From positions 1-48,579 of the forward strand of contig JAYUKY010000057.1 in assembly GCA_043764015.1 (NCBI GenBank): a stretch of DNA of 48,579 nt, written 5' to 3'. Position 1 is the stretch's first letter; each line of letters starts with the position of its first letter. Origin of the DNA: Raineyaceae bacterium. GTDB taxonomy: Bacteria > Bacteroidota > Bacteroidia > Cytophagales > Thermonemataceae. Positions 4,552 to 7,923 of this stretch are shown in pieces. The notes under the pieces were generated by a model. It was not told the origin of the DNA, searched no databases, and saw only the letters and a program-made list of their open reading frames with translations. Made by a program: the position numbers and the translations under genes.

Positions 4552-7500
4552 CTATTGTTCCACCATTTTAATTTCGTCTGCGCTCAAATCATACAACGCA
4601 TAAATCATAATATTTATCTCATTTTCAAGGAGTTGTATTTTTTCTAAAACTGATGTCGTTTGTGTTTTTTCTTCCACAAAAAAAACTTTCCACTTCATTT
4701 GCTCTCTTAATGGAATATCAATTTTGGCTTTTTTGAGTTCGTCCAAAAATGCTGACCATTCCATTTTAGCCCAATTTACGCTTTTTTTGGATAATTCTTT
4801 CTTAAAATTATCCTCAAAAACTTGTATAAGATTACTTTGCAAACTCTTAAACTGTTTGTTCCACAACAAAATTTCTGTTGCTTTTTGGATAAATGGCTCT
4901 TTTTGTGCCTCACTAAGCACAGGAATAGGCACATTGACCATTTTGTTATAATCCAACTTATTGCGTCCTTTGTCTTCTGCGTTCCCATAAGCCACAAAAT
5001 GCAACTTTTTATAGAAATTAAACACTTTTGAATTAAGAAAACTTGCTAAAAACATATCCGCATTACAGATAAAATAACAAGAATTATTGACGTAAAAACC
5101 TTCTTCATCATAATAAAAATGATGATTTACTGCCGTATGAATGTACAAAATCTTTGGCTTGTCAAAGTCTTCATAATATTCAATACTATCCTGAATTTCA
5201 AACCATTCATATTTACCCGCTTTTCTACCATTTGTATCATTTTCACTATTTTTAGGCTTCAATTCTGCATAGAATTGCATCAAATACTCTTTTATTGCTG
5301 GATATTCGTCAATTTTTGTACCTCTTCTAGTGAAAATCAAAAAACTATCATTTTTGTTTTCAATTTGCCAGCGTTTGATGTCTGTTGATTGTGCATAAGG
5401 TTTTATCAAATCCGCACTTTTGGCATCTTTTTCTATCAATTTCTCTTTTGTGGCTTTATCAATGATAAAAGCTTTATTTAAACCTGTTTTCACACCATAC
5501 AAAATTCCATCATTTGAATATTCTTTGAGCGAGATAATAGTAAGGTTATTTGGATTATCTTGTTCACTTTTGCCTAAAATCTTATCCAAAACAATCTGGT
5601 TGGCATTATTGGAGAAAGTCCATTCACTATTTGTAAGATTTTGTTTTTTTATGGTAAATTTTTGGGTGAGTTTGTCCGCAAATTTCTCTATTCCTTCGTC
5701 TCCCAGCAGTTTTTTGGTTACAGGAAAGTAGTCAAAATCATTATTAGTTTGTGTATTTTTGAGAATAATAATTTGTGGTTCTGTGCTTGCATCAAAGATT
5801 TTTATCTCAAAAAAATCTACAATATGCTGAATATCATAGTTTTTGAGTAGTTTTCTAAGTTCCAAACCATATTTAGTTTTAAACCATTTGTTTGGCGTAA
5901 TAAAAGCTAAAGTACCGTTTGGCTGCAATATTTCAAATGCTTTGGCATAAAAATAGACATACAAATCAGCCACGCCACTATATACATTTGGGTAGCGTTT
6001 TTCTAGGTATTTTTTTTGTTTAGGTTTTAGTAGTTCTTGCCTTACATAAGGCGGATTTCCGACAATTATAGTAAAACCTTGATTTTGAGTATTTTCTGAA
6101 AAGATTTGAGGAAATTCTTTTTTCCAATCAAAGTGTTTTTTCCAATCAAAAACATTTTCTGTATAAAATGTTTCGTCATCTATTAAAGAATCACCACATT
6201 TTATATTATCCGTCAAATTATTAAGTTTTTGGCGCATTTGAGCGGTTTTGAGCCACAAAGAAAGTTTAGTAATTTCTACGCTTTCCTCATTCAAATCCAC
6301 GCCAAAAATATTATTTTCTAAAATTTGATGAATAACATTTTTTTCTGTTTTTTCTTCTTTGGTATTGCTTTCTACGTGAGTAGGCGCAGAAATAGGTGCA
6401 AAAATATCTAAAATAATTGCTTTTGGTTTTTCTAGTTTATTTTCTAATTGTTGGTTATTATTTTCTGGTTTTACAGGCAAAAGTGCATTTTTTGCAGTCG
6501 TAAGCCAGCTATATTCTGCAATAAAAAAAGTCAAAACTTGGTTTAAAAATGCACCAGAACCACAAGCAGGGTCTAAAACCTTGACTGTTTTTAGCCAATT
6601 TTCATAGTTTTGTAGTTTGTTTGTTTCTGTTAATATTTCTATATCTGTTGAAAAATTTTCATTTTCAACTAAAAAAAGCCCTAATTCTGTTTTTTTATCT
6701 TGACACAATTTCCCTACTGTTTCACGCACCATATACGCTGTAACGTAGGCAGGCGTGTAGAAAATGCCATCAACTTTGCGTTTTCCTGTTTCTTTTGGTT
6801 TTTCTCCAAGTTCTATTTTTTGTGCCGTTTCTATGAGTTCTGCCCGTTTTTCGTCCATTTGGTTGAGGCTATGCTCAAAAATATGCCCCAAAACATTGAC
6901 ATCAATATCAGAATCAAAATCATAACTACTAATCCTCGTACATTGATTAACTAACAGATTATCAGCTATTTGTAGCTTTTCCATTATTTCATCTTCTGCA
7001 AAAAGTCCGCCATTATAGCCAAAAATATCATAGATTTTACTCTTAAAACCTTTATTGATATAGCTAAAATGTTTTAGAAAAACTTGATAAAGTGGTTTAT
7101 ATTCGTCATTTTCTTTTAGGTACTCCCATTGTGCTATAATATTGCTAATGAGGTTAGTAGGAAGCATTTGTTTGTCTTCTGCAAAGCAAATAAAGACAAT
7201 TCTATTTAGAAATTTCTGTGTTTTTTGGAATAATGTAAATTTATCAATATCTCTATTATTTTTAGCAATATCCAAAAAAAGCCTATCCTTAAAGTCTTGA
7301 TAATCATTATAAAATGCAAGAGTTAGTTCTTCTTCTTTTTGTAGAGATTGTTGTTTGAGACTTACAGGCAAGCCAGAAAGCAAGTTTTTGGCGTGCAAAA
7401 GCGTATAAAGTACTGCAAAACGCTCTATTGTAAGGTTAAACAAATCAAATTCTTCAAATTCTATGGCATTATCCAAATAAAACCGCAATTTGGTAAAATT

Positions 7501-7923
7501 AGAAGTAATGACGTATTTGCAATTTTGGTGATGATTTTTGTAGCCAAATGCTTGATATTCAATATTTTGAAGAAGAATGGTTTTAGCAGATTTCAGCTCT
7601 ATGATAGCAATTACTTGTTTTTCGTCAGTAATTCCAGTTAAGCTACCCAAAATAGCGGCATCAGCTTTTTTACTATCTTTTTCGTTTTTTTGCTCTGTGA
7701 TAAGGTTAAAATCAGGTTGCGGATTGGGCGTATAACCCAAAATGTCCACAAATAAATCCTTCAAAAAACCTTCTTGGTATTGTTCTTCTTTGGCATTTTT
7801 GATATTTTCTTGAATAGAAATATTTCCAAAATGCGCCTGAAAAGCATCATAAGCATTATTTATATTATTTTGATTTTGCCTACTGACAAAATCTTTGAGT
7901 ACAGTTTTTTGAAATAAAGGCAT
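4552..7923 (-). CDS. Single-polypeptide Type IIG/IIL restriction-modification enzyme (fused endonuclease + N6-adenine DNA methyltransferase, Eco57I/MmeI-like)
   Basis: 1123 aa. SAM-binding motif I VLDPACGSGAFL. Gamma-class amino-MTase motif IV IIVGNPPYVRQ. The N-terminal region has a candidate PD-(D/E)xK-like D...ELK segment (DAAILG...IIELKSAKT). A long C-terminal part is a candidate target-recognition domain. Confidence 0.65.
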   Translation of the reverse strand: MPLFQKTVLKDFVSRQNQNNINNAYDAFQAHFGNISIQENIKNAKEEQYQEGFLKDLFVDILGYTPNPQPDFNLITEQKNEKDSKKADAAILGSLTGITDEKQVIAIIELKSAKTILLQNIEYQAFGYKNHHQNCKYVITSNFTKLRFYLDNAIEFEEFDLFNLTIERFAVLYTLLHAKNLLSGLPVSLKQQSLQKEEELTLAFYNDYQDFKDRLFLDIAKNNRDIDKFTLFQKTQKFLNRIVFICFAEDKQMLPTNLISNIIAQWEYLKENDEYKPLYQVFLKHFSYINKGFKSKIYDIFGYNGGLFAEDEIMEKLQIADNLLVNQCTRISSYDFDSDIDVNVLGHIFEHSLNQMDEKRAELIETAQKIELGEKPKETGKRKVDGIFYTPAYVTAYMVRETVGKLCQDKKTELGLFLVENENFSTDIEILTETNKLQNYENWLKTVKVLDPACGSGAFLNQVLTFFIAEYSWLTTAKNALLPVKPENNNQQLENKLEKPKAIILDIFAPISAPTHVESNTKEEKTEKNVIHQILENNIFGVDLNEESVEITKLSLWLKTAQMRQKLNNLTDNIKCGDSLIDDETFYTENVFDWKKHFDWKKEFPQIFSENTQNQGFTIIVGNPPYVRQELLKPKQKKYLEKRYPNVYSGVADLYVYFYAKAFEILQPNGTLAFITPNKWFKTKYGLELRKLLKNYDIQHIVDFFEIKIFDASTEPQIIILKNTQTNNDFDYFPVTKKLLGDEGIEKFADKLTQKFTIKKQNLTNSEWTFSNNANQIVLDKILGKSEQDNPNNLTIISLKEYSNDGILYGVKTGLNKAFIIDKATKEKLIEKDAKSADLIKPYAQSTDIKRWQIENKNDSFLIFTRRGTKIDEYPAIKEYLMQFYAELKPKNSENDTNGRKAGKYEWFEIQDSIEYYEDFDKPKILYIHTAVNHHFYYDEEGFYVNNSCYFICNADMFLASFLNSKVFNFYKKLHFVAYGNAEDKGRNKLDYNKMVNVPIPVLSEAQKEPFIQKATEILLWNKQFKSLQSNLIQVFEDNFKKELSKKSVNWAKMEWSAFLDELKKAKIDIPLREQMKWKVFFVEEKTQTTSVLEKIQLLENEINIMIYALYDLSADEIKMVEQ

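Follow-up and report, generated by a model that had tools for sequence, protein, structure and literature searches.

Two identical REP-like hairpins beside a predicted stand-alone Type IIG restriction-modification gene in a Raineyaceae bacterium

The contig JAYUKY010000057.1 of an uncultured Raineyaceae bacterium (assembly GCA_043764015.1) encodes, in the stretch of 48,579 nucleotides analyzed here (the window), a restriction-modification (RM) protein and, convergent to it, a leucine-rich-repeat (LRR) protein whose gene is bracketed by two exact copies of a 33-nt hairpin. The original prediction, made from the DNA sequence, saw in the RM protein a solo enzyme and in the hairpins a possible cassette boundary or recombination hotspot. 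Both open reading frames (ORFs) are confirmed at their predicted positions and lengths. The locus is probably best explained by the chance neighborhood of two ordinary and unrelated features, a stand-alone Type IIG enzyme and a pair of hairpins of a repetitive extragenic palindromic (REP) family. The features in question are:

221-1687: S8 peptidase gene; its stop lies 10 nt before REP copy 1
1697-1729: REP copy 1; the S8 peptidase gene stops 10 nt before it, and the LRR gene starts 110 nt after it
1840-4497, plus strand: LRR protein gene, 885 amino acids; LRR blocks N- and C-terminal, central region without known family
4514-4546: REP copy 2, between the convergent stops of the LRR gene (4497) and the RM gene (4552); 15-bp stem, GGA loop
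4552-7923, minus strand: predicted Type IIG RM gene, 1123 amino acids in one polypeptide (PADLOC, Pfam, AlphaFold model)

Exact copies of the 33-mer AACTTCCCGAAAGTTGGAAACTTTCGGGAAGTT are present at 1697-1729 and 4514-4546, in the same orientation at both sites, with 0 matches expected in shuffled sequences. It had been described as a perfect palindrome, but the symmetry is incomplete: a 15-bp inverted repeat encloses the asymmetric 3-nt centre GGA, and the reverse strand shows 3 mismatches. As predicted, the second copy is situated where the LRR and RM genes converge, between their stops. RNA folding of each copy yields a hairpin of 15-16 bp with -21 to -22.6 kcal/mol and z-scores of -4.8 to -6.4. 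A third identical copy is found approximately 4.3 kb left of window position 1, in a divergent region 22 nt upstream of a gene start, which brings the number of copies in the 58 kb sampled of this genome to 3. An Rfam search of the whole window at the gathering threshold revealed only a transfer-messenger RNA (tmRNA) and no match at the hairpins, and a literature search with the hairpin sequence returned unrelated primers only. In a scan of JGI metagenomes, the exact 33-mer was present on one contig (L123), on which a REP copy at 5943-5975 is read in frame within a 370-residue membrane acyltransferase-like ORF (KLPESWKLSGS). A scan of viral contigs for the REP core gave 0 matches and hence no sign of phage carriage.

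The distribution of the family was determined with the core CCCGAAAGTT-N3-AACTTTCGGG in one genome per species, comprising 596 Gb, in which about 0.5 matches are expected by chance. The core was found in at least 116 stretches from dozens of genomes, almost all of them Bacteroidota. Hosts among the matches listed are Saprospiraceae, Lewinellaceae, Haliscomenobacter, Chitinophagaceae, Arcicella, Runella, Siphonobacter, Spirosoma, Arsenicibacter, Raineyaceae and others, with Ignavibacteriales, Alistipes and Anaerolineae represented once each. In nearly all copies the stem reaches the ends AACTT...AAGTT, the loop is variable (TAA and TTA being the commonest) and the flanking sequences are unrelated. 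A variant of the repeat, 51 nt long, is shared by a Raineyaceae metagenome-assembled genome (MAG). The original prediction had set a repeat specific to this locus against a generic REP; the phylum-wide dispersal, established across species with this genome sampled over 58 kb, essentially places the 33-mer among the latter.

REP copies on both sides of a transposase gene are, according to the literature, the defining arrangement of REPs and REP-associated tyrosine transposases (RAYTs), and in four genomes (L007, L026, L031 and L092) the repeat flanks a gene for a RAYT-like protein of 202-237 residues on both sides. In Parasediminibacterium (L007), the gene encodes 212 residues and is accompanied by two REP copies per side; homologous, doubly flanked genes occur in two Saprospiraceae MAGs (L026 and L031) and in an Ignavibacteriales MAG (L092), where the REP copies display a compensatory G/C exchange in the stem. 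All four genomes contain additional dispersed copies. The four proteins match the NCBIfam model NF047646 (REP_Tyr_transpos, best E 1.7e-19), their profile finds E. coli TnpA-REP (PDB 4ER8, 1.8e-6), and they possess the HUH motif NHxH and the motif Y(I/V)HxNP. Three of the genes contain a REP copy in frame (L026 699-731, L031 2320-2352, L092 2858-2890), translated as LPESFKLSGS. An in-frame REP in the RAYT gene is a hallmark of TnpA-Y1 subclass 2.4 (RAYT group 4), known from Cyanobacteria and Bacteroidetes (Quentin et al. 2018, PMC6006769). The similarity to REP/RAYT systems, and to subclass 2.4 in particular (PMC6006769), extends to a short hairpin of higher GC content that recurs in intergenic 3' regions, to the single flanked HUH/Y1 gene of about 200 residues with NHxH and YIxNNP-like motifs, and to the Bacteroidota hosts. 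The present REP differs from these systems in its perfectly paired stem, in arms of 15 nt that are mini-palindromes in their own right (AACTT-N5-AAGTT), in a sequence that hardly varies between orders, and in a missing tag, taken up below. By their features, not by phylogeny, the RAYTs may belong to subclass 2.4 or possibly to 2.6.

When the genomic context was counted with ATG-start, non-overlapping ORFs, 23 REP copies were convergent, 49 tandem (of which 37 are closer to the stop of the upstream gene) and 6 divergent, which amounts to a bias toward the 3' ends of genes. This preference is also what would be seen if the hairpins were plain intrinsic terminators that had arisen in place and were identical by coincidence or gene conversion. 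A terminator scan indeed picked up both window copies on the minus strand, with 16- and 15-bp stems and T-rich tails, and copy 2 directly follows the RM gene, 5 nt past its stop, with its T-rich tail on the minus strand. Arguing against this explanation is that T-rich tails, counted on either side, accompany 16 of 124 REP copies, which equals the background (13%), so that the family is not simply a terminator. On the minus strand, no gene lies upstream of copy 1 that it could terminate, and the third copy is next to the start of a gene, in a divergent region. Moreover, the same 15-bp stem recurs across orders and flanks RAYT genes, and some copies are in frame inside genes. In-place terminators are therefore an improbable source of the hairpins. 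In the more plausible REP model, the family would owe its dispersal to an HUH tyrosine transposase of the RAYT type, with the hairpin in single-stranded form as its substrate, and two copies would have landed by chance in the intergenic spots that bracket the LRR gene, after the split from the sister species considered below. Strong hairpins at the 3' ends of genes may secondarily terminate or stabilize transcripts, and copy 2 could serve as a terminator or 3' stabilizer of the RM mRNA.

The RM protein combines a predicted nuclease and a methyltransferase (MTase) within one polypeptide of 1123 residues and has a built-in target-recognition domain (TRD) of the TaqI_C type; its neighbors are a transporter and an LRR protein, and there is no separate S subunit or MTase gene. 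The peptide motifs named in the original prediction are present, IIELK at residues 107-111, VLDPACGSGAFL at 448-459 and GNPPY at 622-626. From the N-terminus to the C-terminus, the following regions are distinguished:

7429-7806, minus strand: predicted N-terminal PD-(D/E)xK nuclease domain, residues ~40-165; catalytic residues encoded by 7540-7662
6814-7428, minus strand: helical spacer, residues ~166-370; all-helical in the AlphaFold model; Pfam MmeI_hel 8.3e-5, under the gathering score
5734-6786, minus strand: gamma-class N6-adenine MTase domain, residues ~380-730
Residues 386-391: MTase motif X, GxFYTP
6541-6573, residues 451-461: MTase motif I, DPACGSGAFLN
Residues 484-527: disordered low-complexity insert in the MTase domain
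6040-6060, residues 622-628: MTase motif IV, GNPPYVR
4912-5733, minus strand: TRD, TaqI_C/CamA-like, residues ~731-1004; Pfam TaqI_C at 847-973
4555-4911, minus strand: C-terminal long-helix region, residues 1005-1123; conserved among homologs

Among the PADLOC models the protein is best matched, over its full length, by PDLC03609 (REase_MTase_IIG, E 3.5e-218), and Pfam detects Eco57I (1.4e-47), MmeI_Mtase (5.5e-19) and TaqI_C (1.4e-7). More than 7900 homologs were retrieved, many of them full-length at 40-55% identity, including named representatives from Thermoflexibacter and Hugenholtzia (full-length, 53-55%). In an alignment of 24 homologs with identities down to 42%, the residues D88, E109-L110-K111 and Q124xxxY128 are invariant, as are G386xFYTP391, D451PACGSGAFLN461 and G622NPPYVR628. 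MTase motifs I and IV are thus not degenerate, and the PD-(D/E)xK residues can be located at D88 and E109-x-K111, together with Q124xxxY128. A D-ExK motif followed by QxxxY is the nuclease signature of Type I HsdR and related enzymes.

An AlphaFold (AF2) model of the protein (pLDDT 79.9, pTM 0.65) places in the nuclease domain, in this order, a helix (46-59), three strands (74-79, 86-94 and 102-110), a helix (119-129) and a further strand (137-141). D88 opens the strand 86-94, E109xK111 closes the strand 102-110, and the helices 46-59 and 119-129 flank them; as modeled, this strand order is the canonical one of PD-(D/E)xK enzymes. The nuclease domain taken alone gave no fold match to any solved nuclease. 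The model continues with a long helical spacer, an MTase with a Rossmann fold, a TRD rich in beta structure and, at the C-terminus, long helices (1005-1040, 1072-1110 and 1115-1122). In a Foldseek search of the PDB, CamA ranks first for the MTase-TRD half (E 2e-29, TM(target) ~0.75), whereas the whole chain aligns with PglX/BrxX (2e-21), MmeI (5HR4; 3.7e-20, TM(target) 0.64), BpuSI and DrdV. A profile search of the PDB returned CamA (6.6e-52), BseCI (3e-41), BrxX (1e-20) and MmeI (1e-15).

The resemblance to PglX raises the alternative that the protein is a methyltransferase, either of the bacteriophage exclusion (BREX) PglX type or an orphan, with no DNA cleavage activity of its own. PglX/BrxX structures align with the model over about 1040 columns with a TM(query) of 0.44-0.46, the PADLOC models for PglX (3.7e-21) and DrmMI match the protein, and the closest solved MTase-TRD modules are those of the methyltransferases CamA and BseCI. 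However, the PADLOC matches, with E-values of 1e-21 to 1e-39, cover the MTase part only, and the NCBIfam BREX PglX models score 96, 72 and 65 bits, far under their cut-offs of 500, 900 and 400. A methyltransferase without nuclease also leaves unexplained the invariant PD-(D/E)xK and QxxxY signature and the full-length match to a Type IIG model. Genes for PglZ, BrxC, BrxA, BrxB and BrxL and for DISARM (defense island system associated with restriction-modification) were sought within about 58 kb, i.e., the 48.5-kb window and a 10-kb flank, and neither these nor other partner genes were found; the original prediction had stated as much for BREX partners. The alternative is therefore very unlikely, and the supported, best reading of sequence and model is that of a stand-alone Type IIG enzyme, which holds given the absence of BREX and DISARM partners from this neighborhood.

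The architecture had been compared with that of MmeI and Eco57I, and the domain order is indeed shared. Membership in the MmeI family in the strict sense does not follow, since most MmeI domains are sub-threshold or undetected: with a cut-off of 27 bits, MmeI_N attains 24.0 and MmeI_hel 23.7, Pfam detects neither MmeI_TRD nor MmeI_C, and MmeI_Mtase alone of the MmeI domains is, like Eco57I, above threshold. Compared with MmeI (Type IIL), the window protein is 200 residues longer and has a TaqI_C/CamA-like TRD and a C-terminal helical region of about 120 residues in place of MmeI_TRD and MmeI_C. With the Eco57I/AcuI-type Type IIG enzymes (Pfam PF07669; PDLC03609) it shares an N-terminal PD-(D/E)xK domain, a helical spacer, a gamma-class N6-adenine MTase and a TRD in one chain; unlike these, it is known from its sequence alone and is encoded in conserved chromosomal synteny rather than in an obvious mobile island. 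CamA and M.BseCI, stand-alone gamma-class N6-adenine MTases with a TaqI_C-type TRD, provide the closest solved MTase-TRD module and lack the N-terminal nuclease and spacer of the window protein (about 380 residues). BREX PglX/BrxX resembles it in the methyltransferase core and the elongated overall architecture and differs in that the window protein has the nuclease signature, sub-threshold BREX scores and no BREX partner genes.

According to the proposed mode of action, the TaqI_C/CamA-like recognition domain would read a short asymmetric DNA site, and the gamma-class MTase would flip out an adenine and methylate it at N6 with S-adenosylmethionine, thereby protecting the host DNA. In unmodified DNA, such as that of a phage, the N-terminal nuclease, held at the end of the helical spacer, would cut at a fixed distance from the site.

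Some variation within the RM family was observed in passing. Relative to the 85%-identical ortholog of the sister genome (P0001 vs P0002), residues 852-915 inside the TRD (nt 5179-5370) form a short, strongly divergent patch in proteins that are near-identical elsewhere; it could reflect a change in specificity or local recombination. The sister ortholog contains, in frame just before NPPY, an inverted-repeat element of about 138 nt (L003 7027-7164), which adds 44 residues in the loop where other homologs carry a Y1 domain. Such an IS200-like Y1/HUH domain, with the motifs DHxH and YIQxNRxKH, is found in some full-length homologs (P0032 with 68 members, P0052, P0099, P0101 and others) of 1210-1290 residues from Flavobacteriaceae, Balneolaceae and Thiohalospira, inside the MTase domain between KEFPxVF and GGFDVVIGNPPY; the window protein has no counterpart. 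A functional link between the REP and the RM enzyme, prompted by this domain, was rejected because the domain is IS200-like, not of the REP-flanked RAYT type, and is missing from the window protein.

The cassette idea was tested against a sister taxon represented by four assemblies, including GCA_043772375.1. At the sister locus (L003), the gene order is identical (ClpS, WYL regulator, LRR-307, SDF transporter, RM, LRR-895, S8 peptidase, patatin), with 85% identity between the RM and 68% between the LRR orthologs, but the palindrome is missing from both orthologous intergenic regions: the RM-LRR spacer is 31 nt long, and the S8-LRR spacer holds unrelated inverted repeats. Since the LRR ortholog is present without hairpins, either the LRR gene predates the hairpins or the hairpins were lost without affecting it. 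The least probable of the explanations, and one that hardly survives, takes the hairpins for the boundaries of either a gene cassette or a unit of site-specific recombination, whether attC-like or not, with the LRR gene as its cargo beside a defense gene. In its favor, two exact direct copies bracket exactly one gene, the outermost letters of the element are AAC and GTT, as at the ends of attC sites, and an identity over 33 bp could in principle be enough for a deletion through homologous recombination. Against it, the LRR gene is in the same position without hairpins in the sister genome and is retained in both sampled variants of this species, and in dozens of genomes the hairpin occurs as single copies at loci unrelated to each other and flanks genes for RAYTs rather than for integrases. 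The specific case of an integron attC site and gene cassette was rejected, given the LRR gene without hairpins in the sister, the lack of any integrase found in the window and the perfect stem without extrahelical bases, which attC sites need. Hence neither a cassette boundary nor a recombination hotspot is supported; the hairpins do not delimit a mobile unit, and the LRR gene is a resident chromosomal gene.

Some of the observations weigh against the combined interpretation of a Type IIG enzyme and a RAYT-mobilized REP. The function of the enzyme is predicted from sequence and model, as is its activity, and its nuclease domain matches MmeI_N (5.6e-5) and HSDR_N_2 (6e-3) only below their gathering scores. 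The RAYT-like proteins score 55-70 bits with NCBIfam, under the cut-off of 80, and Pfam Y1_Tnp does not match them at E 1e-3. No RAYT homolog was found in the window or in the assemblies L001 and L002, which together cover the same 58 kb of this genome as the REP count. The spread of the repeat is uneven: three 33-mer copies are crowded into 9 kb, and the remaining 44 kb of the window have none. Finally, the REP lacks the GTAG/CGTC tag of many REP families and is instead flanked by AACTT/AAGTT; this is not disqualifying because untagged REP families are known (PMC3733652).

The neighbors of the RM gene encode a transporter, LRR proteins, the S8 peptidase and housekeeping functions, the synteny is conserved, and no obvious mobile island is present. 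The DNA has approximately 31% G+C, and the RM and LRR genes are compositionally like their neighbors. Pfam detects LRR_14 (4e-20) in the LRR protein, a PADLOC scan of it gave zero matches, and its central region was without match in both a family search and a PDB search. A metagenome scaffold of 144 kb (ENA ERZ28573637) and a second assembly each encode an identical RM protein; L001 and L002 are the assemblies with the identical RM gene. They diverge completely about 80 nt left of window position 1 (L001 ~17800-18006), where the inverted repeat GTTACTGTAAAAGTTCCGTTGCAAA ... TTTGCAACGGAACTTTTACAGCAAC ends; the cause is a rearrangement between strains or else a break of the assembly at an element resembling miniature inverted-repeat transposable elements. 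At a distance of 3 kb from the RM gene, a regulator with a WYL-WCX domain is encoded (10736-11875, minus strand), which is kept in the sister genome; proteins of this type are frequent regulators of defense loci. Farther away are a bacterial gene for an 842-residue protein resembling the major vault protein, with shoulder and repeat domains of that family (39242-41770, plus strand; MVP_shoulder 3.5e-27, Vault_3 2.4e-8) and the tmRNA gene (38565-38937, plus strand; Rfam RF00023, 98 bits).

The window also contains repeats of other kinds. Seventeen tandem tracts with a period of 7 are all intergenic; the unit varies (TGAGTTG, TTCGTAC, ATTCACA, ATCACAC, AGGTACG and others) and the period is constant. 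Some tracts are inverted pairs that form intergenic hairpins, others are G-poor and lie directly upstream of start codons, including the ATG of the RM gene, and tracts of the same kind occur in the sister genome. Their positions include:

7927-7960, 8024-8051, 9711-9741, 10722-10750, 15579-15610, 16612-16645: period-7 tracts
17574-17643, 18494-18510, 20743-20826, 22725-22857, 29093-29168, 34334-34474: period-7 tracts

Another REP family is represented at 41794-41911 by a GTAG-headed inverted doublet (GTAGAGACGTTGCTTGCAACG...), and the sister locus contains TGTAGGGGCTGGGCTTGCCCCTGCCCA doublets (L003 4949-5079 and 16922-17027), one of them just upstream of the sister RM gene. A second pair of near-identical palindromes, 35 nt long and 94% identical (AAAAGCGCATTTTACAAGTGTAAAATGCGCTTTTT, 41908-41942 and 46174-46208), brackets tandem paralogs without known family (42626-43870/43909-45153 and 45119-45568/45632-46093). 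Downstream of ClpS, at 12473-12602, two 48-nt inverted repeats, 83% complementary and separated by a 34-nt spacer, may constitute another element resembling REPINs.

For the uncultured Cytophagales-like lineage, the RM gene represents one more Type IIG enzyme, with a possible new specificity for REBASE-style mining. Identical hairpins that bracket a gene near a defense gene should be checked for dispersal and synteny before a cassette is called. The cross-order invariance of the REP and the in-frame insertion of small palindromes, including that in the sister RM gene, could be of interest to the study of REPIN/RAYT evolution, in which REPIN-RAYT pairs are usually pictured as lineage-specific and vertically co-evolving. 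It is mildly unusual that the REP barely changes across orders while the RAYTs differ, with 31-54% identity. Tentatively, and with more doubt than confidence, the hairpin AACTTCCCGAAAGTT-N3-AACTTTCGGGAAGTT might be a single REP that has stayed near-unchanged across Chitinophagales, Cytophagales and even Ignavibacteriales, while the RAYTs it flanks diverged to that extent. If so, its near-invariance would imply that either a conserved host factor constrains it or horizontal transfer has spread it repeatedly. Either would conflict with the usual lineage-specific picture, and the copies next to the RM gene would locally represent an element of unusual age or unusual mobility.

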